Program-made: the position numbers and the translations under genes
Notes under the pieces: model-generated
What the model was told of the DNA's origin: nothing
Database searches by the model: none
What the model saw: only the letters and a program-made list of their open reading frames with translations
Shown here: piece after piece, positions 8,203 through 29,961 of the stretch
How the letters are laid out: every line of letters begins with the position of its first letter
Position numbering within the stretch: the first letter of the stretch is position 1
Source: a virus
Virus record (IMG/VR): IMGVR_UViG_3300006353_000001
Length of the DNA: 57,845 nucleotides
Direction: 5' to 3' (one strand)

Positions 8203-8558
8203 GCATCGACAAGTTCTTCGGTCTGCGATACGACGAGAAGTCGTACAACTGCTATCACTTCACTTGTGACGTGTGGAAGCACCTCACCGACGAGGATCTT
8301 TCACAAATCATTGATGATCAGATGCAGACTTCAGGTAGACTGTACAGGCGATACGTTCGGCAGTTCAGAGAGCTGGATGTGCCGGTGTCACCCTGTCTAG
8401 TGATCATGCAGAATCCCAACGAAGTCGTTCACATGGGCGTCTATTACAAAGGTCGAATCCTGCACTTCTCAAAGGGATTGGGCACCGAGTATATGCCTCC
8501 GGAGGTGGCCTGCCGCCATCACTTGAAGGTCAGATATGCAGCTCGTAATCATTCATGA
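8199..8558 (+). CDS. NlpC/P60-type cysteine peptidase-like tail protein (gpK / GTA g14 position)
   Basis: 119 aa, GTG start overlapping the upstream stop. It has a Cys-His pair in the expected contexts (SYNCYHFTCDVWKHL; VVHMGVYYKGRILH). Confidence 0.55.
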   Translation: MSIDKFFGLRYDEKSYNCYHFTCDVWKHLTDEDLSQIIDDQMQTSGRLYRRYVRQFRELDVPVSPCLVIMQNPNEVVHMGVYYKGRILHFSKGLGTEYMPPEVACRHHLKVRYAARNHS

Positions 8559-12159: not shown

Positions 12160-12173
12160 TTATCGAGGCGGCA

Positions 12174-12629
12174 ATGCAACTGACCCCACACTTCTCTCTC
12201 GAAGAATTCATTGCGACCAACCACCGCAATATCAACAATCAGTTGCCCGTAGGGCTGACCAACAACGCCCTTCTGACGTGCAACATGCTGGAACGGATTC
12301 GCGCTTACCTCGCAATGGTGGCTGGCAAGGAGATTCACCTGTTCCTGTCCAGCGGGTACCGCTGTAAGCAGTTGAACGACGCGGTGGGCAGTAAGGATAC
12401 GTCTGATCACGTCAAGGCGTTGGCGGCGGATTGGACGGCGCCTGGATTCGGTACACCGTACGAAGTCTGTAAAGCGTTGGAGCCTCAAGTCTCCAACCTC
12501 GACATCGGTCAACTGATCCACGAATACGGCCGATGGGTGCACACCGGTGCAGGCACTCCGAAGGCAGGTCCGAATCGGATCATCTCCATTTCCAACAGTG
12601 GCACTGAAATAGGGATTGTGCGCGTATGA
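12174..12629 (+). CDS. Endolysin, zinc peptidase M15 family
   Basis: 151 aa. Motifs HFSLEEF, SGYRCKQLNDAVGSKDTSDHVKALAAD and RWVH are the H-x6-D...H zinc-ligand pattern of M15 cell-wall peptidases. Confidence 0.8.
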   Translation: MQLTPHFSLEEFIATNHRNINNQLPVGLTNNALLTCNMLERIRAYLAMVAGKEIHLFLSSGYRCKQLNDAVGSKDTSDHVKALAADWTAPGFGTPYEVCKALEPQVSNLDIGQLIHEYGRWVHTGAGTPKAGPNRIISISNSGTEIGIVRV

Positions 12630-12985
12630 CCCAACTACTCATCATAGCAGCTATCTGGGCAATCAGCCTTGCCGGTGTCGGTTACCAAGCCTTCACAATG
12701 GGTCAGGACAACATCAAGGCCAAGAACGCCGACGAGTTCAGCTTGCGACAGCAGACCATCGAAGACGCCCGTGAGGGCGCGGCTCAAGCCATCGCTGGAA
12801 TTCAGATCATCCACCAGACCATTCAAGGGGAGTTGCGCCGTGAGATTCGTACGAACACTATCTACGCTGATTGCAAGCATTCCCCTGATGGGCTCCGCCT
12901 GCTCAACGATGCCCTCGAAAATCGAAAATCAGTTGGACCCAGCGGTGGTGGCAAACTGTCCGCGGCTAGTAGCCCTACAAGATAA
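12626..12985 (+). CDS. i-spanin (Rz-like)
   Basis: 119 aa. N-terminal transmembrane helix (LLIIAAIWAISLAGVGY) followed by a charged helical region. It lies immediately after the endolysin with an ATGA overlap. Confidence 0.6.
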   Translation: MTQLLIIAAIWAISLAGVGYQAFTMGQDNIKAKNADEFSLRQQTIEDAREGAAQAIAGIQIIHQTIQGELRREIRTNTIYADCKHSPDGLRLLNDALENRKSVGPSGGGKLSAASSPTR

Positions 12986-13070
12986 TACCTTCGGCGCTAC
13001 GACCGAGAAGCTCACTGAAGTATCTGAGCAGTACTACAAGTGTCGTAAGGCCGCCGGCGTAAGAGATTGA
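12840..13070 (+). CDS. Candidate o-spanin lipoprotein (Rz1-like), overlapping the end of the i-spanin gene in the +1 frame
   Basis: From GTG 12840 the +1 frame (ORF track 12669..13070) reads MRFVRTLSTLIASIPLMGSAC/STMP... This gives a basic n-region, a hydrophobic core and a lipobox-like MGSAC. The start codon is uncertain. Confidence 0.4.
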   Translation: MRFVRTLSTLIASIPLMGSACSTMPSKIENQLDPAVVANCPRLVALQDNTFGATTEKLTEVSEQYYKCRKAAGVRD

Positions 13071-13354: not shown

Positions 13355-15814
13355 TTGCAGCGCCTGGGTCGGGACTTCCCAGGCGACTTGGATAAGAATC
13401 ATATGGCTGAAGACATCCTGACAGACATAATCACGGAGTTTTTTCAGGGGGGCTGGCGAGTAGCCCCATTCTTCAAGAGCCCAGATGGGTACATAGGAGT
13501 CAAGGCATGGCCTAAGAGAGCGGCTTCCAATGCGATGGAGCTTCAGGCTCTGATAGAAGAACAGAGAGGGCGGTCCCAAAAACAGTTAATTCTGGGGATA
13601 GTCCCGTCACGTGGCCACTACGTGGTCGACATCGACACCAAGAACAACCCATCAGCTCTCCAGCTGTGGAAGGATAAGGTAGTAGAGGCTTACGGCGATG
13701 TGTCGATGGCCATTCCCAACTTGGTGGTGAAGACCAAGTCCGGCGGATTCCACCTCTACTATTCAGACGGTTCGGACCGTCAACTGCACAGTCCCACGGC
13801 TGTGTTCAGTAAAGATTCGGGCATCGACATCCGTGGCTTCACAGGGATGGTGATCGCCCCGACGGCTGTCGGTTCCATGGAGGACTGGCAGCTGGGCGAG
13901 TATGTGATCGTCAAGGGTCGGCCAACCGACAAGATGACTGTTCTAGGTCTGCACAAGATCTTGGGCGAGTCGTATGATGAAGTGGACACCTTCATCAAAG
14001 TCTTGTTGTCAAACGTCAATGAGGCCTTGCGCAACGATAGTGTGAATGAGATGCAGCGGTATCAACTGCTTCCAGACGCAATGATTGTGCCATCGTCCAG
14101 TCGAGACAACACCCTCTACAGGTGTGCGCGCCTGTGTCGATTGGCGGGACTGTCCCAGACCGCAGCTATCGTGTTCATGGCCGCCGTAGCGCTCAGGTGC
14201 GAGGCCACTCCGGAGGAACCGTCCGAGCATTGGCAGAAGCTGGCCACTGACAAAGTGATGCGTGTGTACGCGTCAGAGTCGGAGATGAAGCTACAAACCA
14301 TCTCAGGTCTGTACGATGAACTCAACAACGCCGGAACAGTCCTCCTTCGCGGAGTGTCCAAATCGTATTACTATTTCAGGCACGGCTCTACAATTCTGCG
14401 GATTGAACCACGTACAAGATATTCCACGGATAACATTGGAAATGTTCTGCAAGGGGTGTCCATTTCTGGTGACGATGGTGAGATCCCAGCAAAGAAAGTC
14501 ATAGGGGCTTACAACCCCCCACAAGTGGCGTATAACGCTGCGATGTACCCGAAGGCCGGTATGCCGTACTTCGAGTACGAGGGTCTGAAGTATGTGAACA
14601 CGTACCATGACCCATTTGCGGCTTTCGAGCCCATCCCAGATCTCATGCACCGGGCCAGACCTTTCGTAGAGAAGTTCGCGGAGTTCGCCAAACACATCAC
14701 AGGTTACGAGGACGGCGACGACGCCCACTTGTTGGACAAGTTGGCATGGATCGTGCAGAAACCGTACCGGCGGTTACCCACTGGCACGATCATCTACTCC
14801 CACACACGGGGATCCGGCAAGGACGTGTTCATGTCTCTGGTACGTGAGATTGTGGGTCGGCAGTACTACATGCCCATCACGCTCAAGTCCATCGAGAGCC
14901 AGCACACACTGCTACATGACAAAATCGTGTGCGTGGCGTCTGAAGTACAGTTACAGACAAATGCCCGTGGGACTATAGCTGCGGCTAGTTTCATGGGAGC
15001 CCTCAAAGACATAATCACAGCTAAGACTGTGTACGTGGATGAGAAATTCGTACAAGCCTACAGTGCTCCAATTTTTGCAAACTTCTTTCTGCTATCTAAC
15101 TTTGAACTGTCATCCATCCTTGAGCCGGGAGATCGGCGGTTCGATGTATTCCACGCTGCTGAAGAGAAGCTCGACCAAACCAGGTTCGGTGATCTGGGCG
15201 ATATTGGCAATGACGGTATATGGGTGGAGCGATCCGACATCGACAACCTGTTCCGCAAACACGTCATATACTCCATCAGGAGAGCGTTGCTTGAGCGGAA
15301 TGTAGACAACCTCTTCGACCGCCAAGAAGCGCGGATGAACGAGGTCAAGTCCATCCTCATGGACAGTCAGAATCCGCCGGCCATCGAGTGGCTGCAGCAG
15401 AATCTACCTCCGTACTTCACAGAAGACGTGGCTATGATGGCCTGTCACTTCTGTCCGATGCACCTCCGCCCTGAGTATGTGATGAAGCAGCTCAGAGAAC
15501 ACTTCGGACCGGCTCTCAAACCCCTCTACAGGACTGGCCGAGCCATCCATCGGATGAATGGGGCTCCCAAGTTGGAGCTCAAATCAGACGGCGCTTCGTC
15601 AATACCCATCCTAGATTTCGACATACGTGGCACTGACAATAAGAAGGCTGTGTACTTCTTCAGCAGCGGTGTGCGGGACGCGTGTCCGACAGACAGCGCT
15701 CTCAAAGCCATGCTCCGTACGTGGTATGGATCTATGATTCAGCGATACTATGGTAACGTAACCGCGTTGCCTGGTAAGAAGCCAGATGGTCCGGCGGAGG
15801 ACATCCTGCCCTGA
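13355..15814 (+). CDS. Bifunctional primase-polymerase (Prim-Pol) / SF3 (D5-type) helicase
   Basis: ORF track starts at TTG 13355; ATG 13403 (MAEDILTD) is an alternative. Prim-Pol motifs VVDIDTKNN...VKTKSGGFHLYY. The C-terminal half has a P-loop, YSHTRGSGKDVF. Confidence 0.85.
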   Translation: MQRLGRDFPGDLDKNHMAEDILTDIITEFFQGGWRVAPFFKSPDGYIGVKAWPKRAASNAMELQALIEEQRGRSQKQLILGIVPSRGHYVVDIDTKNNPSALQLWKDKVVEAYGDVSMAIPNLVVKTKSGGFHLYYSDGSDRQLHSPTAVFSKDSGIDIRGFTGMVIAPTAVGSMEDWQLGEYVIVKGRPTDKMTVLGLHKILGESYDEVDTFIKVLLSNVNEALRNDSVNEMQRYQLLPDAMIVPSSSRDNTLYRCARLCRLAGLSQTAAIVFMAAVALRCEATPEEPSEHWQKLATDKVMRVYASESEMKLQTISGLYDELNNAGTVLLRGVSKSYYYFRHGSTILRIEPRTRYSTDNIGNVLQGVSISGDDGEIPAKKVIGAYNPPQVAYNAAMYPKAGMPYFEYEGLKYVNTYHDPFAAFEPIPDLMHRARPFVEKFAEFAKHITGYEDGDDAHLLDKLAWIVQKPYRRLPTGTIIYSHTRGSGKDVFMSLVREIVGRQYYMPITLKSIESQHTLLHDKIVCVASEVQLQTNARGTIAAASFMGALKDIITAKTVYVDEKFVQAYSAPIFANFFLLSNFELSSILEPGDRRFDVFHAAEEKLDQTRFGDLGDIGNDGIWVERSDIDNLFRKHVIYSIRRALLERNVDNLFDRQEARMNEVKSILMDSQNPPAIEWLQQNLPPYFTEDVAMMACHFCPMHLRPEYVMKQLREHFGPALKPLYRTGRAIHRMNGAPKLELKSDGASSIPILDFDIRGTDNKKAVYFFSSGVRDACPTDSALKAMLRTWYGSMIQRYYGNVTALPGKKPDGPAEDILP

Positions 15815-15858: not shown

Positions 15859-17709
15859 ATGACACACTGTCTTGACTTGGAAACCGGCACTGAGGACGGC
15901 GATCTCAGTACTGGATACGCCCTCGAACCCTGGCGGGTCCGCCAGGGCAAAGCATTCATCACCAGCCTCCACGTGTACGGAGACAAGGTGGTGAAGAACG
16001 TCAAACGCCCCACCCGTGATCAGATCATCGAGGTGCTGGAAAGTCTGAAGGGTGAGGAGGTGTACTGTCACTTCGCCCTGTTCGACGTGGGCTGGTTGAT
16101 CGCCTCGATCGAGCCAAATCGACTGGCCCGGTTACACACTGCGATCAAGGGCGTGCGCTGGCGAGACACCGCGTTGCTCGCTAAGTGGTGTGTCAACGGC
16201 CGTCGCGCCGACGATATGCGGATCTCGTTCTCCCTCGTCAACCTCATCAACACCTTCAAGGATAAGATGGGCTATGAGGGTGCGGATGAGTTCATCCGCA
16301 TGAAGCAGAACGAGTCGTTCGACTCCAATGATCAGTACTGGGAGCAGCGTGGTCAACGGGATGCTTTGTGGACCTACAGGCTCGCGAAGTTCTTGGAAGC
16401 GCAGTTGCCGGAGGTGTGCAAGCGTGGGTATGTCATCGAGGCCCGATGCATCCCACAGATCGCCAATTCGTGGTTGATGGGTATGTACGTCAACCCCGAG
16501 GCGTTCAAGAGGGCCGAGGCCCAGATCGAGGTGGATATTGCAAATGGATGCAGAGAACTTGGCCTTTCAGAAAGCGTGCTCGGATCTCCAGCGCAGCTGG
16601 GTAGGGTTGTTTTTGGCGATTGGGGATTTCAACCGATCGCTCGAACGCCTACTGGACAGCCGAAGGCTGATGCCGATACCTGGATTCTTCTCGCTCACGG
16701 CTCCGGTGACGAGCGACTCAAGAAAGTCCTCAAGACCAGACAAGCTCTGACTCTGCGGAGCAAGTACATCAAGACTGTGTACGAGGCACTGAGCCGCACG
16801 GGCGACGGCTTCCTCTACGGCAAGCCCATGATGTTCGGGGCCAGCTCTGGCCGCCTCACCTACTCCAGTGACACAGGCGCCGGACTGAAGGCCTCCATTG
16901 CTCAGCATCAGATACCGCGGAAGGACAAGATCATCCGCGCGTACCTGTCCCCGCCTCCCGGCACCAACGTCTTCGAGACCGACGCCATGGCTCAGGAGTC
17001 TCGGATCATGGGCATATGGTCTGGCGATTCTGAGATCATACGCATCTTCAACGAGGGCATCAACTTCCACAGCCACATGGCGTGCCAGATCTATGGCATG
17101 TCGTACGAGGACTTCCAGCATGACTACGAGGCCGGCAACCCGGTCTACATCGAGCGGAGGCAGATGGGCAAGTTGACCAATCTCTCGTGCAACTTCCGGA
17201 TCGGCGGCAAGAACCTGTCCAAGAAGGCTCTCACCGAATACGACACCTACATGAACGAGATGGAGGGTCGGAAGCTGGTCAACACCTTCAAGCGGGCGTA
17301 CCCCGGGGTGCCAGGGTACTGGGACTCCATCATCGCCTTCGCTGCTCAGTACGGTTACTCGTACACCCTTGCTCAGCGCCGGTACAAGGTGCCGAAGGAT
17401 ATGTTGCAGGGGTCGGACGCGTGGAAGGTCGAGGGCACGATCATCAGCCACCCGATCCAGGGTACCGGCGCTGAGCAGTTCCTCGCCGCGTTGAGTTCTG
17501 TGCCGGACGCTCGTATCCAGACCAATATGCACGACGGCATATTCTGGGTGGTGGACGAGGGTCCAGCCGGCAAGGAGGAGTCGGAGTACATCCTCAATGC
17601 CATGAATCAGACCAATTACCAAAAGCTGTGGGACCTGCCAGATCCTCTGTCGATCCCGCTTCTCTACGAAGGTTCCAAAATCGGGACCTCTTACGCTGAC
17701 GTCAAATAA
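15859..17709 (+). CDS. DNA polymerase, family A, with 3'-5' exonuclease domain
   Basis: 616 aa. Exo I motif LDLETGTED. Polymerase motif A FETDAMAQESRI, motif B RRQMGKLTNLSCNFRIGG, and motif C region QTNMHDGIFW. Confidence 0.9.
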   Translation: MTHCLDLETGTEDGDLSTGYALEPWRVRQGKAFITSLHVYGDKVVKNVKRPTRDQIIEVLESLKGEEVYCHFALFDVGWLIASIEPNRLARLHTAIKGVRWRDTALLAKWCVNGRRADDMRISFSLVNLINTFKDKMGYEGADEFIRMKQNESFDSNDQYWEQRGQRDALWTYRLAKFLEAQLPEVCKRGYVIEARCIPQIANSWLMGMYVNPEAFKRAEAQIEVDIANGCRELGLSESVLGSPAQLGRVVFGDWGFQPIARTPTGQPKADADTWILLAHGSGDERLKKVLKTRQALTLRSKYIKTVYEALSRTGDGFLYGKPMMFGASSGRLTYSSDTGAGLKASIAQHQIPRKDKIIRAYLSPPPGTNVFETDAMAQESRIMGIWSGDSEIIRIFNEGINFHSHMACQIYGMSYEDFQHDYEAGNPVYIERRQMGKLTNLSCNFRIGGKNLSKKALTEYDTYMNEMEGRKLVNTFKRAYPGVPGYWDSIIAFAAQYGYSYTLAQRRYKVPKDMLQGSDAWKVEGTIISHPIQGTGAEQFLAALSSVPDARIQTNMHDGIFWVVDEGPAGKEESEYILNAMNQTNYQKLWDLPDPLSIPLLYEGSKIGTSYADVK

Positions 17710-17718
17710 GGAACTCCA

Positions 17719-18399
17719 ATGATCGCACTCTCCTGGTCCCGCCTCAGCACCTTTCAACAGTGCCCGAGGAAGTTCCATCTCCAATTCATCACGAAGTCGT
17801 TCCGTGAAGAGGAGAAGTCCATCCACCTCGTGAAAGGGGAGGAGCTGCACAAGCAGCTCGAGAACTATGTTTTGGCCAAGAATGGTGCGCAGGCGATGCC
17901 GTTGGGGTTCTCCCCTGAAGTACGTGACGCCCTGCCCTACGTCAACAAGCTCTTTGATCTTTACGATTCTGTGCACCCAGAATCCCAAGTTGCGTGTGAC
18001 ATCAACTGGCGGCCGGCCGAGTGGTTCGGCAAGGACGTGGCGTGGCGTGCGATCATGGACGTCGTGGCACTCCGTCCCCAGACGTGCTTCATCGGGGACT
18101 ACAAGTCGGGCAAGATTTATCCTTACGGCAGTGGTTACGGCCAGCTGCATCTGTCTGCTGCCATTGGTCTTGAGCGCTTTCAAGACGTACCTGAAATCAA
18201 CGCCGCCTACATCTACATCGAGCACAAGAAAGTGACCCCGATCAAGGTCACCCGCTCGGAGCTGCCGGCGGTGCGCGCTCACTTCGACAGGGAGTTCGAG
18301 AAAGTGCAGAACGAGGTCAAGTGGGAGCCGACACCAAACGACAATTGCAAGTACTGTCAGGCCACCAAGGCCCAGTGCCAGTTCTCGAGAAAGCTGTGA
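17719..18399 (+). CDS. PD-(D/E)XK exonuclease, Cas4/RecB-like with Fe-S cysteines
   Basis: 226 aa. N-terminal SWSRLSTFQQCPRKF, core IGDYKSGK, C-terminal CKYCQATKAQC. This is the one-plus-three Cys arrangement typical of Cas4-type nucleases. Confidence 0.7.
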   Translation: MIALSWSRLSTFQQCPRKFHLQFITKSFREEEKSIHLVKGEELHKQLENYVLAKNGAQAMPLGFSPEVRDALPYVNKLFDLYDSVHPESQVACDINWRPAEWFGKDVAWRAIMDVVALRPQTCFIGDYKSGKIYPYGSGYGQLHLSAAIGLERFQDVPEINAAYIYIEHKKVTPIKVTRSELPAVRAHFDREFEKVQNEVKWEPTPNDNCKYCQATKAQCQFSRKL

Positions 18400-18713
18400 C
18401 CCCAGAAGGCAAGGCGAAGTTGAAGATTCGTCAGTGGTACAGGGACAACCTCCCCGGCCATTGGCGGGTCTCCCCACGGGGCGGGCCCTTCGGCAAGCAG
18501 GGCTGTCCCGACGATTTGCTGTGCTGGCAGGGCGTATTCATCGCTATCGAGATCAAGTCCGACACGGGCGACACCTCTGCGATGCAGAATCTTCAGCTAA
18601 AGCAGATAAAGGATGCAGGAGGTGTGGCTGCTGTGGTCAGGGGTTACGATGTGCCACGTCTGAACGCCATCAAACAAGCCGTACTGAGGAAGGTGCATGA
18701 ATTTCACGATTGA
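18396..18713 (+). CDS. VRR-NUC domain nuclease
   Basis: GTG 18396 overlaps the upstream stop (ORF track 18321..18713). Motifs GCPDDLLCWQG..FIAIEIKSDTGDTSAMQNLQ...GGVAAVV fit a PD...E.K VRR-NUC core. Confidence 0.65.
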   Translation: MTPEGKAKLKIRQWYRDNLPGHWRVSPRGGPFGKQGCPDDLLCWQGVFIAIEIKSDTGDTSAMQNLQLKQIKDAGGVAAVVRGYDVPRLNAIKQAVLRKVHEFHD

Positions 18714-20121
18714 GGACTATACTTGGCCCGCCTTCATGGGGCGCAAGCCGTTCTATCACCAGAAACACACAGTGAGGTTCATCCTCGCCAATAAGCGGGC
18801 GTTCATCCTCAATGACATGGGGACGGGCAAGACGCTCTCCACCATCTGGGCCTGTGACATCCTCATCACCGCCAAGAAGATTCGTAGGGTATTGATCATT
18901 GGCCCGTTGTCCACCATGCGATCCGTGTGGTTCAACGAGCTCATGCTGAACACCCCGCACCTGGTTGCCGGGATCGCTCACCACCCGATCCGTCAGAACC
19001 GGATCAACATCATCAAGAACCCGACTGTGCAATTCGTGATCATCAACCACGACGGTATCAAGATCGTCGAGGACGAGATCATTAATCAGCAATTCGACGT
19101 GATCATTATCGACGAGATCACCGCATTCAAGTCCAATTCTGAGCGGACGAAGTGCATGAAGCGAATTGCCGATGCACAGTTCAAGGGCAAGAATCCAAAG
19201 CGTCAGCGAGACGGCGGGGTCTGGGGCATGTCCGGCGCTCTCACGCCTAACGCCCCGACGGAGGCGTATTACCCTGCCAAGATCGTGAATCCGCTGAACC
19301 AGTACCTGCCACAGTACTACGGACAGTTCCGCGACGCGTGCATGACTCAGATCAATGAGATGATGTGGGTGCCGAAGCCCATCGCCGCTCAGATCGTGAC
19401 CATGTGCTGTCAGCCGGCCATCCGATTCACCCGTGAGGAGTGCCTCGACCTGCCGGACACCACGTATCAGACGTTGGAGGTGCCGCTCAGTGCGGAGCAG
19501 GCGACCTACTATGACAAGATGCGCAAGGAGGCGATGATTGAATCAGATTCCGGAACTGTTACTGCGGTTAACAGTGCTGTGCTGCTCAACAAACTTCTAC
19601 AGATCTCTGCCGGTGCAGTCAAGAATGACGTGGGTCAAGTCATTGAGATCGGATGCAAGGAGCGCCTCGATCAGCTATTTGAGATCTATGAAGAGACTCC
19701 ACAGAAGAAGCTCGTCATCTTCGCGACGTATCGCGCTACCATCGAGATGCTCATGCGTGAGCTACAGAAGAAGGGTATCGAGGCGGCATGTATACACGGT
19801 GACGTGGCTCAGAATCTGCGTGCTTCTTACATTGAGCGGTTCCAGTCAGGCACCCTGCAAGTCCTTGTCCTCCAACCCCAATCTACGGCTCACGGCATTA
19901 CGCTCACGGCTGCGTCCACGATTGTTTGGTTTAGCCTTATCGCGAGCAACGAGCTTTTCCAGCAAGGAAATGCCCGCATTGTGCGAGCTGGTCAGACGAG
20001 GAAGACCCTCATCATCATGATGGTGGGTACCAAGGCCGAGAAGCACGTGGCCCGCATCCTCGAAAACAAGGATAACCTGTCTCAAGAGGTGCAGAAGATC
20101 TTCGCTAATCACGATTTATGA
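18697..20121 (+). CDS. SNF2-family (SF2) helicase/translocase
   Basis: 474 aa. Motif I LNDMGTGKT, motif II IIIDEITAFKS, and a helicase-C region with QGNARIVRAGQTRKT. Confidence 0.85.
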   Translation: MNFTIEDYTWPAFMGRKPFYHQKHTVRFILANKRAFILNDMGTGKTLSTIWACDILITAKKIRRVLIIGPLSTMRSVWFNELMLNTPHLVAGIAHHPIRQNRINIIKNPTVQFVIINHDGIKIVEDEIINQQFDVIIIDEITAFKSNSERTKCMKRIADAQFKGKNPKRQRDGGVWGMSGALTPNAPTEAYYPAKIVNPLNQYLPQYYGQFRDACMTQINEMMWVPKPIAAQIVTMCCQPAIRFTREECLDLPDTTYQTLEVPLSAEQATYYDKMRKEAMIESDSGTVTAVNSAVLLNKLLQISAGAVKNDVGQVIEIGCKERLDQLFEIYEETPQKKLVIFATYRATIEMLMRELQKKGIEAACIHGDVAQNLRASYIERFQSGTLQVLVLQPQSTAHGITLTAASTIVWFSLIASNELFQQGNARIVRAGQTRKTLIIMMVGTKAEKHVARILENKDNLSQEVQKIFANHDL

Positions 20122-20184: not shown

Positions 20185-20727
20185 ATGGCAGGTGATTGGA
20201 TCGACCCGAATGAGGAGACTGACGAGGACCTAGAGTACTTCAGTGAGGTGTTGGCCGACTTTGAGCCGACTGGCCGAGAGCCGAAGTTCTTCAAGGTTTC
20301 CGAGCTGGACCTGACTCCGGCTCAGTTGAATGAGATGAAGGTCGACGAGCTGATCAAGACCTACATCGACCTGCGCAATCAGATGGGCACCGACCGCAAG
20401 TGCTACAAGCAGCGCGAGGCCAGGATGAAGTTGCAGATGAGCGTGGTCAGCATGCACCTCCGCAACAAGGGCGACCTCGCCGGCGTGGACAGCTTCAAGA
20501 CGCCTCAGGGCACCGCCTATCGCAAGACCTCCGAGAAGTTCAAGATCCAGGACTGGGCTGCTACGTCTCAGTACGTGTTGCAGACCGGCTACATCCACAT
20601 CCTCCAGAAGCGTGTGTCGCCCAATGCCGTGAAGGAGGTCCGTGACCTAGAGGGATTGCCCCCCGGCATCGAGGTCACCACCGAAGTCGAATTCGCCGTG
20701 CGTTCCCCGACCGCCCGTGCGAAGTGA
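20185..20727 (+). CDS. Coiled-coil protein, possibly Mu Gam-like / Gp157-like DNA-end-binding protein (tentative)
   Basis: 180 aa with an acidic N-terminus and a central helix. The C-terminal pattern TPQGTAYRK...KIQDW...LQTGYIHILQKRVSPNAVKEV...GIEV...EFAV loosely matches my recollection of Gam. Confidence 0.3.
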   Translation: MAGDWIDPNEETDEDLEYFSEVLADFEPTGREPKFFKVSELDLTPAQLNEMKVDELIKTYIDLRNQMGTDRKCYKQREARMKLQMSVVSMHLRNKGDLAGVDSFKTPQGTAYRKTSEKFKIQDWAATSQYVLQTGYIHILQKRVSPNAVKEVRDLEGLPPGIEVTTEVEFAVRSPTARAK

Positions 20728-20763: not shown

Positions 20764-21018
20764 ATGGGTACCAAGCAACAGGAGATGAAGGACGGGTGCT
20801 TTGCCAAGGCGGCGCTCGACGAACCTCTGTTCGTGCTGCGTGCACAGGACAAGGCGGCCCCCGCGCTCGTGCGGAAGTGGGCCGATGACTTCAACAAATA
20901 CCACACGAAGCGTGGTACCAAGGGTCGCGAGCTGGCTAAGGCCATCCTCAAGCACACCGAAGCTCTTGAAATCGCGGACGCCATGGATGCATGGCACGCT
21001 CGCAAACAGGCAGACTGA
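20764..21018 (+). CDS. Hypothetical protein (84 aa)
   Basis: ORF track. ATG with nearby purine-rich stretch. Co-directional in the replication module. Confidence 0.5.
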   Translation: MGTKQQEMKDGCFAKAALDEPLFVLRAQDKAAPALVRKWADDFNKYHTKRGTKGRELAKAILKHTEALEIADAMDAWHARKQAD

Positions 21019-21019
21019 C

Positions 21020-21943
21020 ATGACCATCGAACTACCAGAACACCTCCGAACCGGCCCACTGGCCGAAGCAGCCGCTCGAGCGCTCATCGATGCACAGAGC
21101 ATGTCCGCGGCGTCCAACAGCGTGCCGCGGATCAGCCTCCGCGGCCGTGAGTTCCGAATTGTGGAAGGCGGCGAGGAAGTCGCCAAATTCCACGGCGAGC
21201 TCGACGTCATCATCCTCGGCGTCGAGCCCGGCCCGGGCAAGATGATCAAGACTTACTACGAGAAGGGTTATCAGCAGGGTGCCAAGGAGCCGCCCACCTG
21301 CTCGTCGGACGACGGCATTGCCCCGTCGCCGTGGGTCACCAACAAGCAATCGCCTCAGTGCAACGGCTGTCCCAAGAACGTGTTCGGCTCGGCCACAAAT
21401 CCCGCCACCGGCAAGCAGACCAAGGCCTGCCGTGACAGCAAACGGATCTGGGTCAAGCTTGCCGACGGCAACGTGCTGAACGGCAAGCCGTACGAACTGA
21501 AGCCGTTCGCCGAGCGCACGATGTACGGCGTCAACATCACTGTCTCGTCCCTCAAGGCGTTCAGTGAATACGGTAACCTGCTGCAGGGTCTGGGTCAGGG
21601 TCCGGCGGTCTGCGTCACAACCCTCGTGATGGTGGACTCGGAGTTCCCGCAAGTCGAGTTCAAGCTGAAGGCCTGGCTCGACGCACAGACCGCGCCGCTC
21701 TCACTGCAAACCGCCGAGAAGCGTCCATGGAAGGTGTACACCAACGCCGGACTGGCACTGGCGGCTCCGGACGGCGGCGCCCGCGCGGGCCTGCCCACAA
21801 GTCTGCCAGGCGTACCCGCCCACCTCCAACAGAAGACCGTGGAGCCTCAGGGCACTCAGACTGTGCTTGACGCGGCTACGCCGGCTGAACCCAAGCCGGC
21901 GGTGAGCACGAAGGACATCGACGACGCCGTCGGTAACTGGTGA
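21020..21943 (+). CDS. Putative ssDNA-binding protein with internal Cys cluster and acidic C-terminal tail
   Basis: ATG 21020 follows the upstream stop (ORF track 20801..21943). 307 aa. Cys cluster CSSDD...CNGCPKN...ACRD. Pro/Ala-rich linker and acidic end KDIDDAVGNW with a terminal aromatic residue, as in many phage SSBs. Confidence 0.4.
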   Translation: MTIELPEHLRTGPLAEAAARALIDAQSMSAASNSVPRISLRGREFRIVEGGEEVAKFHGELDVIILGVEPGPGKMIKTYYEKGYQQGAKEPPTCSSDDGIAPSPWVTNKQSPQCNGCPKNVFGSATNPATGKQTKACRDSKRIWVKLADGNVLNGKPYELKPFAERTMYGVNITVSSLKAFSEYGNLLQGLGQGPAVCVTTLVMVDSEFPQVEFKLKAWLDAQTAPLSLQTAEKRPWKVYTNAGLALAAPDGGARAGLPTSLPGVPAHLQQKTVEPQGTQTVLDAATPAEPKPAVSTKDIDDAVGNW

Positions 21944-21949
21944 TGTTTC

Positions 21950-22061
21950 GGGGGTCGAGGATATAACCGGTGGATCAGCACCCACCTGCCCTTGCAAAAC
22001 GCCTCGGGCAGTGCGCGGACCGCTCTACGTGGGAACCTCCCGCCGCTAGGCCTCGACCCCC
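21950..22061 (+). promoter_or_regulatory. Structured leader closed by an 11-bp inverted repeat (GGGGGTCGAGG ... CCTCGACCCCC)
   Basis: The arms are at 21950..21960 and 22051..22061 and enclose 90 nt. They occupy nearly the whole gap between the SSB-like gene and the carbamoyltransferase gene. Confidence 0.5.
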
Positions 22062-22079
22062 ACCTATTCTGGAGAATAT

Positions 22080-23687
22080 GTGAAATCTCTTCTGCTGACT
22101 CTCGGCCACAACAGCTCCGCCATCCTGATCGAGGACGGCGAGATCAAGTGGGGTTACGAGACCGAACGAGTGACTGGCCTGAAGTCCGATAGCCAGTTCC
22201 CCTCGCCCGTACTGGACAAGTACCTCATGTCCAAGCCAGACATCGCCTACGTCACGCACTGGGCGCCGGACGGGTTGCTGTCCAGCATGAGCTACAAGCA
22301 TTGGAAGCCCGAATACCTCGAGGACGTGCCGATCCGCACACTCGACGTGATGAAGGGCAGGTCCCACCACGACACTCACATGGCGGCCGCCCGCTGCTAC
22401 GCAGGGCCGAGGTTCCCCATCGACCGCACTTACGGGTTCGTGATCGACGGATTCGGCACGATGGGCGAGCACTTCAGCGTGTACGAGATCACCGCCGAAG
22501 GTCAGCGACTGGTCGAGCGGGTGCATGGCTATGACACTAGCCTTGGCCTGTGGTATCAGTACGCCACGGCGTTCATGAGCCTGAAGATGCATGAGGACGA
22601 GTATAAGCTGCTCGGCTACGAGGCTCACGTCGACCCGATGATGGCGCGCAAGCTGGACGATCACGCTGAGGTCGAAGCTCTGCAATGGATCAGCCGCATG
22701 CACGAGTCCGTGTATGGTAGTAAGTACGATCCGATGTATGATCTGAACGCTCTCGCACACGTGAAAGAGCGCGTGTTCAATCACCTCAGTGAGCTGTGCA
22801 AGCTCTTCGGCATCGACGAGGTGATCTCTGTGCGGTCGAGATCCATCATCTCGTACTACGTGCAGCGGGTGCTCGAGCAGGTTGTCCGTGCGAAGGTCGA
22901 GAAGTGGAGGCCCAGGAACGTGCTGTTGTCGGGTGGGTGCTTCTACAACGTCAAGCTCGGCAAGAACGTGATAGAGATGGTCGATGGTCAGACCTGTGTG
23001 TACCCGCTCGCCGGCGACCAGGGCAATGCCATTGGCCTGTACTTCATGGACCACCCTGAATTTGTGTTCCCGGCCGACCTCAATTGGGGGAAGCGTGAGC
23101 TGAAAGACGTGGGACAGGTCCCCAACATGTACGTGGTGGACGAGGTGGAGGCGGCGAACCTCATCCGCCTGATGCTGAACCACTTCGGCTACGTGAACCT
23201 CGTGCGTGGCGCGATGGAATTCGGCCCCCGTGCTCTGTGCAACACCAGCACCCTTGCTCTGCCGACCAAGGACAACGTCGACATCATCAACTCCGCCAAC
23301 GACCGCAACACCATCATGCCGATGGCGCCGGTCATGACGATGTCTCAGTACAAGAATCTGTACGAAAACACGAAACATTTGTGGCGCTCGTACAAGCACA
23401 TGATCGTGGCCATGGAGCACACGGAGCACCCTCTGCCAGAGCTGGCCGGCGTCACGCACGAATACTTCCACCCCTACCACCACCACACCGGTCGACCGCA
23501 GGTGGTGGAGGACGCTGACAGACTCATGTTCGGGCTGCTCAACCAGTTCGGCCCTCTCATCAACACCTCCTTCAACTATCACGGTATGCCTATCGCGCTG
23601 GGCATGGAGAGCATCATCAAGAATCACATGATGCAGTATCAGCGCCAGAAGAATTTCTCAACTGTGGTGATCAGAAATGACAAGTGA
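22080..23687 (+). CDS. NodU/CmcH/TobZ-type O-carbamoyltransferase (Kae1-like N-domain + YrdC-like C-domain)
   Basis: 535 aa. GTG start 4 nt after SD GGAGA. Motifs LGHNSSAILIEDG, GRSHHDTHMAAA, GGCFYNVKLG, GDQGNAIG, then GAMEFGPRALCNTS, IMPMAPVM and INTSFNYHGMPIA. Confidence 0.85.
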   Translation: MKSLLLTLGHNSSAILIEDGEIKWGYETERVTGLKSDSQFPSPVLDKYLMSKPDIAYVTHWAPDGLLSSMSYKHWKPEYLEDVPIRTLDVMKGRSHHDTHMAAARCYAGPRFPIDRTYGFVIDGFGTMGEHFSVYEITAEGQRLVERVHGYDTSLGLWYQYATAFMSLKMHEDEYKLLGYEAHVDPMMARKLDDHAEVEALQWISRMHESVYGSKYDPMYDLNALAHVKERVFNHLSELCKLFGIDEVISVRSRSIISYYVQRVLEQVVRAKVEKWRPRNVLLSGGCFYNVKLGKNVIEMVDGQTCVYPLAGDQGNAIGLYFMDHPEFVFPADLNWGKRELKDVGQVPNMYVVDEVEAANLIRLMLNHFGYVNLVRGAMEFGPRALCNTSTLALPTKDNVDIINSANDRNTIMPMAPVMTMSQYKNLYENTKHLWRSYKHMIVAMEHTEHPLPELAGVTHEYFHPYHHHTGRPQVVEDADRLMFGLLNQFGPLINTSFNYHGMPIALGMESIIKNHMMQYQRQKNFSTVVIRNDK

Positions 23688-24102
23688 CAACATTCATGTG
23701 CCCGACTTCTCGCAAGACATCGTCGGCAAAATCTTCGACTTCAATGAGCAGGTCATCGGTACCGGCGATGTGGACTTCAACTGCCTCACGCAGAAGCAGT
23801 TCGACTGGACCGTGAAGTTCGTGAAGGAGGAGTTGACGGAATTCTCCGAAGCTTTCGCCGAGCAGAACATGATCAAGATGGTGGACGGGGTCCTCGATCT
23901 GATCTACGGTGCGATGGGCACGCTCAAGAAGATGGGGCTCACCCGTGAGCACGTCTATGCCTGTATGAACGCCATCCACGCCGCCAACATGACCAAGAAG
24001 AAGGGGGTCGTGGCGTCACGTGGCAGTGACGAGGACGCCGCGAAGCCAGTCGACTTCGTGCCGCCGGACGAAGCCATCGGACAGATCCTCTTTCTGGAGT
24101 AA
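23677..24102 (+). CDS. MazG-like all-alpha nucleoside triphosphate pyrophosphohydrolase
   Basis: 141 aa. Motifs EELTEFSEAF...MVDGVLDLIYGAMGTL...IHAANMTKK are typical of phage MazG/PRA-PH-like NTP-PPases. Confidence 0.65.
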   Translation: MTSDNIHVPDFSQDIVGKIFDFNEQVIGTGDVDFNCLTQKQFDWTVKFVKEELTEFSEAFAEQNMIKMVDGVLDLIYGAMGTLKKMGLTREHVYACMNAIHAANMTKKKGVVASRGSDEDAAKPVDFVPPDEAIGQILFLE

Positions 24103-24105
24103 ATC

Positions 24106-24669
24106 ATGAGACTCATCCTCGAGGGACCTGACAACGCCGGCAAGACTACGCTCGCCCGAAAACTGTGCGACGAGTTGGGCGCTGCACTGATCTACTTCCA
24201 CCCGGGCGGCAAGCCCGCCGACCAGGTGGCCGAGTTCGAGTGTATGCAGGAGCAGTTCAACAAGCTCCGCGACAACTCCAACATCCTGATGGATCGGATC
24301 ACTCCGATCAGTCAGCGAATCTACAACCCCGACCCGGTGGCCGACCACTACCGGGCGGAGGCCCTGACCCGGATGATGGTGTTCGCGCCGGTCATCGTGT
24401 ACTGCCGACCCAGCACTGACCTCCTCCTGCGAGTGCAGGACTTCAAGTGGCGGCCGGGGGAGACCGAGGAGCACAAGCAGAAGATCATCGACGGCCAGCA
24501 CACCTTCGTGCTGCGATACGACGATCTGATGCGGAAGATCCCCCACATCGACTACGACTGGGAGCATGAGCTAGCTCCCATGCAGTACACGACCATCCTG
24601 CAAGGACTGATGGGCCGTCGTGACATGGAGGCGAAGCTCCACACGCTCATGAACCTGAGGGGCATGTAA
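24106..24669 (+). CDS. P-loop nucleotide (dNMP/thymidylate-like) kinase
   Basis: 187 aa. The N-terminal MRLILEGPDNAGKTTLARKL matches the thymidylate-kinase-type P-loop context. Substrate unknown. Confidence 0.55.
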   Translation: MRLILEGPDNAGKTTLARKLCDELGAALIYFHPGGKPADQVAEFECMQEQFNKLRDNSNILMDRITPISQRIYNPDPVADHYRAEALTRMMVFAPVIVYCRPSTDLLLRVQDFKWRPGETEEHKQKIIDGQHTFVLRYDDLMRKIPHIDYDWEHELAPMQYTTILQGLMGRRDMEAKLHTLMNLRGM

Positions 24670-25487
24670 TGCGGACCCTCCAAGGCTCCAACAACCTCCA
24701 CACCATCATGCTGGCGTACGGCACCTGCATGAAGGCCAAGGAGGTCGAGATCCGTGGCCAGAAGTGCCGCAACGTCCGTGACATGGCGCTCCTGCTCGAC
24801 GCTCGAAAGTGTCCGGTCACTGCCTTCAGGGCTAGGAATCTCAACCTCACCTACGCCAAGAAGGAGATGCTGTGGTACCTCGGCGCAGACCCGAAGGACG
24901 ACTCGATCGAGAAGCATGCCACGATGTGGAAGAAGCTGAAGCAGGCGGACGGCTCCTACTTCAGCAACTACGGGCAATACATCTTCGACGACGCGAATCA
25001 GCCCAGTCAATTCGTCTACGTGATCAATACGTTGGCCGAGGACCCTCAGTCCCGCCGTGCGAGCATGGTCCTGCTGCAGCCGAAGCACCTCTTCCGTGAG
25101 AACACAGATGTCGTGTGCACGTACGCTCTGCAGTTCACGATCGAGGACAGCATGCTCCACATGACCGTGCTGATGCGGAGCAACGACATCGTGTTCGGGT
25201 TCACGAACGACGCGTTCTGCTTCTGGAACATCATGGCATTGGTGTACGCCGTGCTGCTCAAGAAGTACCCGACCCTGGTGATGGGCACCTACACCCACTT
25301 CGCTGGCAGCATGCACGTCTACGAGCGGCATTACAAGATGCTGAACGAGATCGTCGGCGAGCCCAACGGCGGTTCGTTCAGAGTGGACGTGCCGTTCCCG
25401 ACGTCCGAAGAGGCCGTCGCCCTCGTCAAGTCCAATGGCAGGGAGGGCGACGGTGAATACACCAAATGGCTCAAGGCCGAGTCGTGA
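24669..25487 (+). CDS. Thymidylate-synthase-fold pyrimidine hydroxymethylase, T4 gp42 (dCMP hydroxymethylase)-like
   Basis: 272 aa. Motifs EMLWYL, SNYGQYIF, DPQSRRASMVLLQP, VVC(150)TYALQF, MRSNDIVFGFTND(181) and MHVYERHY. Cys codon at 25116..25118; Asp codon at 25209..25211, which is nucleophile +31. Confidence 0.75.
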   Translation: MRTLQGSNNLHTIMLAYGTCMKAKEVEIRGQKCRNVRDMALLLDARKCPVTAFRARNLNLTYAKKEMLWYLGADPKDDSIEKHATMWKKLKQADGSYFSNYGQYIFDDANQPSQFVYVINTLAEDPQSRRASMVLLQPKHLFRENTDVVCTYALQFTIEDSMLHMTVLMRSNDIVFGFTNDAFCFWNIMALVYAVLLKKYPTLVMGTYTHFAGSMHVYERHYKMLNEIVGEPNGGSFRVDVPFPTSEEAVALVKSNGREGDGEYTKWLKAES

Positions 25488-25914
25488 CGCCTACTTCGTG
25501 CAGATGACCGCGCTCGTCGCGCAACGCGCGACGTGTGCTCGGCGCCAGGTGGGGTGCGTGCTGGTGAACGAGCAGGGTCACGTGATGGCCACAGGCTACA
25601 ACGGTGTCTGTCACGGCGCTGTCCACTGCATCGACGTGCCATGCCCAGGCGCCAAGTTCCCGTCTGGCCAGGGGCTGCACCTGTGCGAGGCGATCCACGC
25701 GGAGCAGAATGCTCTGTTGCAGTGTAGGGACATCAACGAGATACACACTGCCTACGTCACGTCCAGCCCATGCATCCACTGTGTCAGGCTGCTGTGCAAC
25801 ACCGGCGTCAAGCGCGTCGTCTTCTCTGAGGTCTACCCACATGCCGAATCCGAACGAGTCGCCAGAAACCATGGTATTGAATGGATCCACCACGCCGATC
25901 CACAAGTGCTTTGA
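25435..25914 (+). CDS. dCMP deaminase
   Basis: 159 aa. Motifs RATCARRQVGCVLV, CEAIHAEQNAL and SPCIHCVRLL (HAE + PCxxC zinc motifs). The start overlaps the hydroxymethylase by 53 nt. Confidence 0.85.
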   Translation: MAGRATVNTPNGSRPSRDAYFVQMTALVAQRATCARRQVGCVLVNEQGHVMATGYNGVCHGAVHCIDVPCPGAKFPSGQGLHLCEAIHAEQNALLQCRDINEIHTAYVTSSPCIHCVRLLCNTGVKRVVFSEVYPHAESERVARNHGIEWIHHADPQVL

Positions 25915-26133: not shown

Positions 26134-26412
26134 ATGAGCATCATCATCTACGGCCCAGTCGGTGTGGGCAAAACTTACAACGCCGAAGCTCTGAAGAAGC
26201 ACTTCAAGATGAGGTACGTCCGCGACGCCAACGACTACCCGCCGGCCATCGACCCGTACCCGAAAACTCTTGGTCAGATGGAGGAATTCAAGGCCGGGTT
26301 CGAGCTGTTCCTCACGGACACGTTTCCGCCCGAGAACTACCCGTTCCGCGCCACACGGCGCATCTTGTCGTACGCCGAAGCCTGCAAACTGGCCAACATC
26401 GAACAGCCCTGA
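26134..26412 (+). CDS. Small P-loop protein (92 aa)
   Basis: The N-terminal IIIYGPVGVGKTYNAE is a Walker A motif. I saw no clear Walker B, and the protein is unusually short for an NTPase. Confidence 0.45.
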   Translation: MSIIIYGPVGVGKTYNAEALKKHFKMRYVRDANDYPPAIDPYPKTLGQMEEFKAGFELFLTDTFPPENYPFRATRRILSYAEACKLANIEQP

Positions 26413-26469: not shown

Positions 26470-27567
26470 ATGCAAGACCTTCAATGGACGCCGCTTTGGC
26501 GCAAGAATTCTCTGGGCATCGGCACGTGGCGTGTCTGTGCCATGGTCGAGACCGCCACGCGCGGCAAAATCTTCATCGCGCACAGCACAGTCGAGGGTGG
26601 CAGTGAGGTGCGGCACGAGGATCCAGTCGTCACCAACAACTCCGGCCGCACCATCCAGCAGCAGCTGGACCTCGAGATGGCCTCCCGCATCAGTCGGATG
26701 AAGGACAAGGGCTACAAGGAGACGCGCGAGGCAGCTCTGTTGGGCAGCACGAATCAGATGGGCCTGGCCAATCCCATGCTGGCGTTGGCCCTCGCCAAGG
26801 TCACGCTGACCCAGTCGATGATGGCCAACGCCTACGTGCAGCCGAAGTTCGACGGTCACCGGTGCCTGATCACTAAGCAGGGCGGCGACATCCTCGCCTA
26901 CACCCGCAAGGGCAAGCCGATCACCACCATCCCGCACATCCTCGAAGACGCATATCGGTGGATGCAGGAGGGCGACACCCTCGACGGCGAATTGTACATC
27001 CACGGCATGAAACTGCAATCTATCAGCAGCCTCATCAAGGCGGAGCAGCCTGACAGCCGTAAGCTGAACTATCATTGGTACGACATGGTTGATCGCACGA
27101 GGTTCTTCGATCAACGGTTCGCCACGATGCGGGACCTGCACGCCAATTGCGAGACTAAGCAGATCGAGCTCGTGCCGACCGAGAAGGTCACGAAGATGGC
27201 CGAGGTCTACGATCACTTCAAGAAGTCCCGAGCCGCGGGCTTGGAGGGCTCGATGCTGCGACTGTCCATCGCCGGGTATCAGGACGGCGCCCGTGTCTCG
27301 CAGCTGATAAAGGTCAAGGCGCGTGAGGACGGCGAGGTCACCGTGCTGGGCGGGCGCGCCTCGTCACAGGGCTGGGCTATTCTGCGAGTAGACTTCAACG
27401 GCAAGCAATTCGACATCTCGGCTCCAGGCTCCGTGCCGGAGAAGACCGAGGTACTGAAGAACCTCGACAGATACATCGGCAAATTGCTGACGATCGAGTA
27501 TGCCATGCTCACTGACGACGGGATCCCGTTCCACGCCGTCGCCACAAGGTGGAGGGATGACCTGTGA
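26470..27567 (+). CDS. ATP-dependent DNA ligase
   Basis: 365 aa. Motif I QPKFDGHRC, motif III LDGELY, motif IV region, motif V EGSMLR..LIKVK. It has an N-terminal extension of ~120 aa. Confidence 0.85.
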   Translation: MQDLQWTPLWRKNSLGIGTWRVCAMVETATRGKIFIAHSTVEGGSEVRHEDPVVTNNSGRTIQQQLDLEMASRISRMKDKGYKETREAALLGSTNQMGLANPMLALALAKVTLTQSMMANAYVQPKFDGHRCLITKQGGDILAYTRKGKPITTIPHILEDAYRWMQEGDTLDGELYIHGMKLQSISSLIKAEQPDSRKLNYHWYDMVDRTRFFDQRFATMRDLHANCETKQIELVPTEKVTKMAEVYDHFKKSRAAGLEGSMLRLSIAGYQDGARVSQLIKVKAREDGEVTVLGGRASSQGWAILRVDFNGKQFDISAPGSVPEKTEVLKNLDRYIGKLLTIEYAMLTDDGIPFHAVATRWRDDL

Positions 27568-29258: not shown

Positions 29259-29518
29259 ACAATACCGACGACGGAAAGACCGTAGCACCCAACGACAACG
29301 CGTCCGGTCAGGCTATGGAGTGTCCTGGCGACGGGTCTTTTGACAAGGATGGCAAGCCCATCCGCTACCGCCACGCCTGGTCGTGGGTGTGGGCCGACCA
29401 CCCCACCGACAAGACGTTGAGGGTATGGACCGACCGAATGCGGTGCGACAACTGTCGGCAGGAGAAGCAGTCCAGTCGGGGAGAGGGTGACGTGGAGGTC
29501 ACGAGGGTGCTGCTATGA
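29255..29518 (+). CDS. Hypothetical protein (87 aa)
   Basis: ORF track with an ATGA overlap on the upstream gene. Confidence 0.5.
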   Translation: MNNTDDGKTVAPNDNASGQAMECPGDGSFDKDGKPIRYRHAWSWVWADHPTDKTLRVWTDRMRCDNCRQEKQSSRGEGDVEVTRVLL

Positions 29519-29961
29519 CACACTGGGTCCTCGGATTCGCCTTCGACGACCTGGGCAGGGTGGCGCTCATTCGCAAGAACAAGCCTGATTGGCAACACGG
29601 CCGTTGGAACGGCATCGGAGGCAGAGTTGAACAAGAAGCATGCTTCGACGCTATGGAGCGCGAGTTTCGTGAAGAGACCGGAGTCACGATCTCCGCCGAG
29701 CGTTGGCGACTCGTCGGCGACATCCAAGTCCCCACTGGCAGGGTCGACGTCTTCACCTACACCGGGCCGGAGATTCGACATTGCAAGACTGTGGAAGCGG
29801 AGCCCGTGACCCTCTTCCTGATCGAAGCTGTGCGGAAGCACCTCACTTGCATCGAGAACGTCGTGGCACTGATCGAGCTGTGTCAGATCAAGCCGGATGC
29901 CACTGCGGCGCCGACTCCGCACTTTACGTTGAAGTACGAGCTCGGAACGTCGCACAGGTGA
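29515..29961 (+). CDS. Nudix hydrolase
   Basis: 148 aa with a complete Nudix box, GGRVEQEACFDAMEREFREETGV (GX5EX7REUXEEXGU). Confidence 0.8.
   Translation: MTHWVLGFAFDDLGRVALIRKNKPDWQHGRWNGIGGRVEQEACFDAMEREFREETGVTISAERWRLVGDIQVPTGRVDVFTYTGPEIRHCKTVEAEPVTLFLIEAVRKHLTCIENVVALIELCQIKPDATAAPTPHFTLKYELGTSHR

Follow-up and report, generated by a model that had tools for sequence, protein, structure and literature searches.

The stretch analyzed here, IMG/VR virus record IMGVR_UViG_3300006353_000001 (57,845 nt; hereafter the window, meaning the whole stretch), carries between positions 22080 and 25914 five co-directional genes that most probably encode a pathway of cytosine replacement and hypermodification, yielding 5-carbamoyloxymethylcytosine (5cmC) in phage DNA. 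An original prediction had described these genes as abutting or overlapping and headed by an O-carbamoyltransferase; its coordinates were exact, all the motifs that it quoted were present in the translations, and its family assignments of the five proteins were each confirmed by scans against Pfam and PHROGs, with E-values called far beyond chance. Against NCBIfam, all five proteins gave sub-threshold matches only. The genes and their diagnostic residues were the following:

22080..23687, + strand: two-domain (Kae1-like plus YrdC-like) O-carbamoyltransferase, 535 aa, predicted 5-hydroxymethylcytosine carbamoyltransferase (Pfam, PHROG and homology)
23217..23249, + strand: motif EFGPRALCNTS in the YrdC-like domain (Cys387, Thr389), a variant of the canonical W...EFGPRALGNRS
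23677..24102, + strand: MazG/PRA-PH-type all-alpha NTP pyrophosphohydrolase, 141 aa, putative dCTP (possibly dUTP) pyrophosphatase (Pfam PRA-PH, 2.4e-8)
24106..24669, + strand: P-loop (d)NMP-kinase-fold protein, 187 aa, putative 5-hydroxymethyl-dCMP kinase (phrog_761 'thymidylate kinase', 7e-16)
24669..25487, + strand: thymidylate-synthase-fold (TS-fold) enzyme, 272 aa, predicted dCMP 5-hydroxymethylase (Pfam Thymidylat_synt, 9e-20)
25116..25118, + strand: codon of the catalytic Cys150, aligned with T4 gp42 Cys148 and E. coli Cys146
25209..25211, + strand: codon GAC of Asp181, the pyrimidine-specificity residue, aligned with T4 gp42 Asp179 and E. coli Asn177
25435..25914, + strand: zinc-dependent dCMP deaminase, 159 aa, with HAE and PCxxC motifs (Pfam dCMP_cyt_deam_1, 2e-20; phrog_174, 3e-42)

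The cluster sits in the block of replication and nucleotide-metabolism genes, with the helicase on one side and the ligase on the other. The carbamoyltransferase and MazG-like genes overlapped by 11 nt, a gap of 3 nt separated the latter from the kinase gene, the kinase and TS-fold genes shared 1 nt (TAATG), and the TS-fold and deaminase genes overlapped by 53 nt (25435-25487) in different frames, which suggests translational coupling of these two. Within the overlap, alignments with the homologues of the IMG/VR locus L005 backed the C-terminal end of the TS protein as well as the N-terminal end of the deaminase. The GTG start of the carbamoyltransferase gene was preceded, five bases upstream, by GGAG (22071-22074), and homologue alignments began at residue 1 of its product.

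The carbamoyltransferase matched Carbam_trans_N (4e-17) and Carbam_trans_C (8e-21), both above the Pfam cut-offs, as well as phrog_1601 'Nol-like carbamoyltransferase' (3e-56). In a BLASTP comparison with the phage 5-hydroxymethylcytosine (5hmC) carbamoyltransferase characterized by Yang et al. (eLife 2021; PMC8670742), the alignment covered residues 1-533 of 535, with 39% identical and 55% positive positions (E 4e-115). The enzyme of the IMG/VR locus L006 was an intermediate, being 49% identical to the characterized enzyme and 42% to that of the window. Single-sequence similarity to solved O-carbamoyltransferases was low (7e-13 at best); a family profile run against the Protein Data Bank (PDB) matched NovN, GdmN and TobZ with E-values from 1e-22 (TobZ) to 5e-33. 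H10, H96, H97, D98, H100, D123, D313, the EFGPR motif and the NTS-N-H motif were invariant in 14 of 14 family members; the His and Asp residues are presumably metal ligands, as in TobZ. Like these three enzymes of antibiotic biosynthesis, the window protein combined a Kae1-like with a YrdC-like domain, had the conserved His/Asp metal motifs and kept the EFGPRAL core; its chemistry probably also proceeds via carbamoyl-adenylate. Their acceptors, in contrast, are small-molecule hydroxyls, and their W...ALGNRS (ALGHRS in GdmN) is replaced by L...ALCNTS in the window.

In the details of this last motif the window enzyme resembled the characterized one. NovN and chain 7xb6 carried W-x7-EFGPRALGNRS and GdmN carried W...EFGPRALGHRS, whereas the motif was I...EFGPRALCNTT in the characterized enzyme and L...EFGPRALCNTS in the window, the Cys and Thr substitutions being common to both; the Leu is residue 374 (codon 23199-23201). 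TobZ W408, G421 and R423 are the positions separating the enzymes of modified contigs from the rest (Yang et al., PMC8670742). Numbered by the W/G/R spacing of 13 and 15 residues, L374, C387 and T389 of the window enzyme (I, C and T in the characterized one) would correspond to these three positions. A lookup of contigs encoding the window's carbamoyltransferase returned a 2.2 kb fragment only.

The TS homologue was aligned with T4 gp42 and E. coli ThyA, using sequences from annotated records. Asp181 was found 31 residues after Cys150, within MRSNDIVFGFTND (T4 counterpart: MRSNDVVFGFRND), and Thr151 occupied the position of E. coli His147, as Thr149 does in gp42. Two earlier claims on this protein were thereby upheld, namely that the Asp encoded at 25209..25211 is the specificity residue, since it was not misplaced in the alignment, and that the enzyme resembles gp42 rather than ThyA. 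In PDB searches the best values corresponded to MilA CMP hydroxymethylase (4e-22) and T4 gp42 (4e-19), as compared to 2e-10 or weaker for ThyA; by blastp, gp42 obtained 81.6 bits (28% identity, E 1e-22), E. coli ThyA 48.1 bits and the 5-methylcytosine (5mC)-forming enzyme of Xanthomonas phage XP12 47.8 bits. The XP12 enzyme was itself nearest to ThyA (101 bits), and SNYG, VCT and MRSNDxVFGFxND were common to the window protein and gp42 but not to XP12. In a tblastn search of phages, the listed matches included, after carbamoyltransferase-bearing phages, many T4-like gp42 genes. The best tblastn match (43% identity) lay at 7631-8422 of the Ralstonia jumbo phage RsoM2USA (MG752970.1), which has a distant carbamoyltransferase-like gene (25% identity) at 123542-124699, ~115 kb from its TS gene. 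The window held one TS-fold gene; no second thymidylate synthase, dihydrofolate reductase (DHFR), T4 beta-glucosyltransferase or HAD phosphatase was found by tblastn of the window, and the ThyX motif had no occurrence there in a real ORF (open reading frame). Taken together, the gp42/MilA ranking, the single TS gene and the lack of DHFR and ThyX make a dCMP hydroxymethylase, rather than a methyl-forming enzyme, the best-supported reading of the TS homologue.

The other three proteins were assigned with variable precision. The MazG-like protein matched phrog_671 (2e-18) and phrog_18404 (at e-18) and, weakly, the MazG-like DR2231 in the PDB, and its gene was kept at the same position in Xanthomonas phage Xp15, L005 and L006. 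Sequence searches of the PDB were marginal for both this protein and the kinase. As the sequence matches of the kinase were weak, its homologues were collected and aligned and its structure was then predicted with AlphaFold; the model (pLDDT 92.9) had as best Foldseek matches SPbeta YorR, thymidylate kinases and deoxynucleoside kinases (probability 1.00, TM ~0.5-0.6), and Pfam Thymidylate_kin was present in some of the homologues. The predicted fold supports the P-loop protein being a mononucleotide kinase. Over 165 aligned columns, the deaminase and T4 cd had 29% identity (E 4e-16), and a deaminase gene also followed the TS gene in Xp15, Acinetobacter phage Effie, L005 and L006.

The replication block of the window was collinear with those of Xp15 (NC_007024, genus Alachuavirus) and Effie at 26-50% amino-acid identity, all five genes included; the shared order was PolA, exonuclease, helicase, two conserved ORFs, carbamoyltransferase, MazG, kinase, TS, deaminase and ligase, although the pyrophosphatase matched at two places in Effie. 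A profile scan of IMG/VR yielded 80 loci with carbamoyltransferases 31-59% identical to that of the window. A TS-fold gene was located within 6 kb of the carbamoyltransferase gene in 71 of them, several of the nine others being cut by contig ends, and 67 of the 71 linked TS-fold genes had Asp at the specificity position; in the window the TS gene lies ~1 kb downstream of the carbamoyltransferase gene and forms part of one gene string with it. Of the 80 loci, 17 had the complete order carbamoyltransferase, MazG, kinase, TS, deaminase (Xp15, L005, L006 and 14 other IMG/VR loci have the five genes in this order). IMG/VR genomes with this arrangement included one of 55 kb and one of 59 kb. The predicted pathway is thus a fixed five-gene cassette in an Xp15-like lineage. 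In the protein database, 1277 relatives of the carbamoyltransferase were obtained at E ≤1e-20, the best 120 of which were all at least 51% identical, many of them on contigs of 50-58 kb. The carbamoyltransferase remained linked to an Asp-type TS at identities between 31% and 59%, in phages infecting Xanthomonas, Acinetobacter and Bacteroides, and cyanophage and some jumbo-phage carbamoyltransferases were far more distant (~25% identity over half the protein). In the region 6986-13015 of Bacteroides phage BF503P1 (locus L011, OP172670.1) the module is built differently: a 31%-identical carbamoyltransferase comes first, and after it two separate genes, each annotated as dCMP 5-hydroxymethyltransferase, and a dUTPase.

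Genome size was also similar (~48-56 kb) in Xp15, Effie and the Acinetobacter phages HHU4 and MD-2021a, the likeness to the last two being known through carbamoyltransferase and TS matches only. The window differed from the Xp15/Effie group in that no similarity existed at the nucleotide level. In the Xp15 and Effie records, the annotations examined made no connection between the module and DNA modification, and the literature searched contained no paper treating Xp15 together with the carbamoyltransferase.

The original prediction had also presented the cluster as a candidate for an undescribed DNA hypermodification, and this part did not stand, the base and the enzyme having been published in 2021 (PMC8670742). 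Yang et al. (eLife 2021; PMC8670742) described a phage 5hmC carbamoyltransferase and a sewage phage contig carrying a TS homologue together with it. With carbamoyl phosphate and ATP, the enzyme converted 5-hydroxymethyl-dC (5hmdC) into 5-carbamoyloxymethyl-dC (5cmdC); conversion was ~70-100% on single-stranded DNA, weaker on duplex and ~60% on 5hmdCTP, and the enzyme was inactive on 5mdCTP and 5hmdUTP (PMC8670742). In the modified contigs, the carbamoyltransferase domains co-occurred with Thymidylat_synt, PRA-PH, dCMP_cyt_deam_1 and MafB19-deam (PMC8670742), and with Carbam_trans_N/C this is the exact Pfam set of the window cluster. Both systems shared a full-length, 39%-identical enzyme, the ALCNT[ST] variant, the linkage to a TS homologue (here of Asp type) and the predicted product 5cmdC, and a PRA-PH pyrophosphatase and a dCMP deaminase accompanied the window enzyme as well. 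They differed in that the window is another member of the phage lineage, at 39% identity and from a JGI metagenome, with its activity predicted from genes. A deoxynucleoside monophosphate kinase was not discussed by Yang et al., the word 'kinase' being absent from the main text, and 5cmdC as the final virion base was a prediction only in that paper (PMC8670742). Searches of the literature on 5cmdC, 5-carbamoyloxymethyl and Xp15 plus carbamoyltransferase returned only this paper and a 2024 preprint citing it. The window cluster is a new example of the known 5cmC system and no new kind of chemistry.

The proposed pathway would begin with the MazG-like pyrophosphatase, which would convert host dCTP into dCMP, keeping dC out of phage DNA and feeding the later steps. 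The TS-fold enzyme, through Cys150 and Asp181 and with methylene-tetrahydrofolate, would then form 5hmdCMP from dCMP; the P-loop kinase would phosphorylate it to the diphosphate, from which the host NDP kinase would produce 5hmdCTP. The deaminase would turn part of the dCMP into dUMP, and the dTMP would be supplied from it by host ThyA, since the phage is without a thymidylate synthase of its own. Finally, the carbamoyltransferase would form carbamoyl-adenylate from carbamoyl phosphate and ATP and transfer the carbamoyl group to the 5-hydroxymethyl oxygen, giving 5cmC; its substrate could be either 5hmdCTP that is yet to be incorporated or the single-stranded DNA of the replication fork. A likely benefit would be resistance of the DNA to host restriction nucleases. 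The earlier proposal that dC is exchanged for 5hmdC and this for 5cmC appears well supported as far as the genes can tell, with a full-length homologue that performs the reaction in vitro. We infer in this way the activities of all the window proteins and the composition of virion DNA, the carbamoylation reaction having been shown in vitro for the 39%-identical homologue.

The logic of such a pathway is that of the T4 5hmC pathway: dCTP is depleted, dCMP is hydroxymethylated and phosphorylated, part of it is deaminated for dTMP, and the hydroxyl is decorated. Decoration would consist of a carbamate in the window phage instead of glucose, no beta-gt homologue being present in the window, and in contrast with T4 this phage does not have td or frd of its own. 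The term 'T4-like' in the original prediction therefore held for the pathway logic and for the homology of the TS enzyme to gp42 and of the deaminase to cd, but it makes no statement of homology for the MazG-like protein and the kinase, because these lacked pairwise similarity to gp56 and gp1. Their roles are probably analogous to those of gp56 and gp1 and not inherited from a T4-like ancestor, as judged from these comparisons.

Several points weigh against the 5cmC pathway as just set out. Pairwise blastp and phmmer comparisons of the MazG-like protein with gp56 and of the kinase with gp1 gave nothing significant, although such sequence methods could overlook a remote fold relationship, and the substrates of both window proteins were assigned from gene context only. 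An identity of 39% is no guarantee that the window carbamoyltransferase uses the same acceptor. Asp at the specificity position is also present in dCMP methylases that make 5mC (2024 preprint); it was for this reason that the comparison with XP12 was run, and the choice of hydroxymethyl over methyl draws on the similarity ranking and on the hydroxyl that the carbamoyltransferase needs. A preference for 5mC or 5hmC nucleotides over dC is a polyphyletic trait of many phage 'dCMP deaminases' encoded beside Asp-type TS genes (2024 preprint), and the deaminase step may differ from that of the T4 scheme. In the literature searched, no cultured phage was reported to have 5cmdC in its virion DNA.

The deaminase gave rise to the most probable of the alternatives, although we consider it unlikely, namely that both pyrimidines are altered: the deaminase would favor 5hmdC nucleotides and turn part of the 5hmdCMP or 5hmdCTP into 5-hydroxymethyl-dU (5hmdU) nucleotides, and 5-hydroxymethyluracil or a derivative would stand for some or all T, besides or instead of 5cmC. 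More than 60% of 56 active deaminases, from a pool of Asp-type-TS-linked contigs, were selective for 5mdCTP and/or 5hmdCTP over dCMP/dCTP, and seven deaminase candidates made 5hmdU in vivo (2024 preprint); the lack of a ThyA in the window would also fit. However, the characterized carbamoyltransferase did not act on 5hmdUTP (PMC8670742), the window deaminase is homologous to T4 cd, whose product dUMP goes into dTMP synthesis, dTMP can be provided by host ThyA, and selectivity for modified cytosines, being polyphyletic, cannot be read from sequence. It is just as improbable that the DNA of this phage group goes beyond a simple exchange of C for 5cmC in a broader sense, through 5hmdU made by the deaminase or through further processing of the carbamate into an undescribed base.

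Three further readings were considered and rejected on the points given for each. In a scheme like that of XP12, which we regard as very unlikely, the TS homologue would be a dCMP methylase forming 5mdCMP, the deaminase would make dTTP from 5mdCTP and the carbamoyltransferase would act on something other than DNA. The Asp-type TS homologue of XP12 indeed adjoins a dCMP deaminase, as in the window, and five of seven Asp-type TS homologues tested made 5mdCMP (2024 preprint). The XP12 enzyme, however, is ThyA-like and methyl-making; the window homologue was closer to gp42 than to it by bit score and by motifs that XP12 lacks, XP12 has a DHFR beside TS where none was found in the window and does not have a carbamoyltransferase, carbamoyltransferase and TS genes were linked in 71 of the 80 loci, and the characterized homologue needs a hydroxyl, as reflected by its inactivity on 5mdCTP (PMC8670742).

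A non-nucleic-acid acceptor (a sugar, an antibiotic-like metabolite or a cell-surface molecule), with the carbamoyltransferase being an auxiliary metabolic gene that merely lies beside a 5hmC module, seems highly unlikely. Small molecules are the substrates of the solved relatives TobZ, NovN and GdmN, the PHROGs category of the family is 'moron, auxiliary metabolic gene', and the ~25%-identical carbamoyltransferases of cyanophages and jumbo phages occur free of this context, whereas the closest characterized relative acts on 5hmC (PMC8670742), the window gene lies inside the replication block with an 11 nt overlap with the next gene, and its linkage to an Asp-type TS was kept across phages of three host genera. 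Least probable of all was that the P-loop protein is a 5-HMUDK-like DNA kinase, phosphorylating 5hmC in DNA towards another derivatized base: P-loop kinases reportedly act on 5hmdU in DNA in thymidine hypermodification and the substrate of the window kinase comes from context, but its model best matched mononucleotide kinases (thymidylate and deoxynucleoside kinases, YorR), the PHROG and some Pfam assignments were thymidylate kinase, 5hmdCMP production in a phage calls for a kinase of that nucleotide, such as gp1 in T4, and the ORFs scanned included no aminotransferase, radical-SAM or PLP gene of the kind that characterizes these pathways.

With the cluster read as a 5cmC pathway, the window adds one closed genome of ~57.7 kb to the phages predicted to carry this base. 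Its first 120 nt (1-120) were identical to its last 120 nt (57726-57845), leaving a unique length of 57,725 nt, and the contig is therefore a closed assembly of ~57.7 kb, circular or terminally redundant, and probably a complete phage genome. It belongs to an uncultured, Xp15-like tailed phage of ~57.7 kb. Neither the module nor 50 kb of the window had a megablast match among GenBank phages; the phage is new at the DNA level, with relatives found at the protein level only. The same pairing of carbamoyltransferase and Asp-type TS was present in the cultured phages Xanthomonas Xp15, Acinetobacter Effie and HHU4 and Bacteroides BF503P1, and 5cmdC can therefore be searched for directly in virion DNA; no virion DNA analysis of a cultured phage with this module was found in the literature searched. 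Every gene of the window with homologues lay on the + strand, among them, outside the cluster:

13355-15814: Prim-Pol/primase
15859-17709: family A DNA polymerase
17719-18399: exonuclease
18697-20121: SNF2-type helicase
26470-27567: ATP-dependent ligase
29515-29961, + strand: Nudix hydrolase (Pfam NUDIX, 2.6e-9)
52087-53505: large terminase
53513-54871: portal

In NCBIfam, the Nudix hydrolase weakly matched the NudG-type pyrimidine dNTP diphosphatase, and its gene was kept downstream of the ligase in L005, L006 and the locus L013; next to the MazG-like protein, it is another candidate for the removal of dCTP or other dNTPs. A search for tRNA genes in the window found none, and a scan for promoters and terminators between 20000 and 28000 gave no signal exceeding the shuffled expectation. 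An antisense ORF of 550 aa lies opposite the carbamoyltransferase gene (21975-23627, - strand), and other long antisense ORFs occurred too; they are shadow ORFs, typical of high-GC DNA.

Over the whole window, GATC (477 found, ~210 expected) and TCGA (453 found, ~210 expected) were over-represented with respect to the zero-order expectation, and TTAA was strongly under-represented (15 found, ~102 expected). Composition or codon bias of a genome of 58-60% GC may be the sole cause of the TTAA deficit. No sign of avoidance of C-containing restriction sites was detected in the whole window.

Between the deaminase and ligase genes, an ORF of 92 aa (26134-26412, + strand) presented a Walker A motif (GPVGVGKT) and matched phrog_14685, of unknown function. 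Directly upstream of the carbamoyltransferase gene lay conserved ORFs of unknown function at 20185-20727, 20764-21018 and ~21020-21943 (+ strand). The listed TTG start of an ORF at 20801 is probably too far upstream, because homologue alignments started near residue 62-74. The 21020-21943 protein was Cys-rich and without a Pfam match, and the ORFs at 20185 and 21020 had counterparts in the same place in Xp15 (gp41 and gp40), Effie, L005 and L006.

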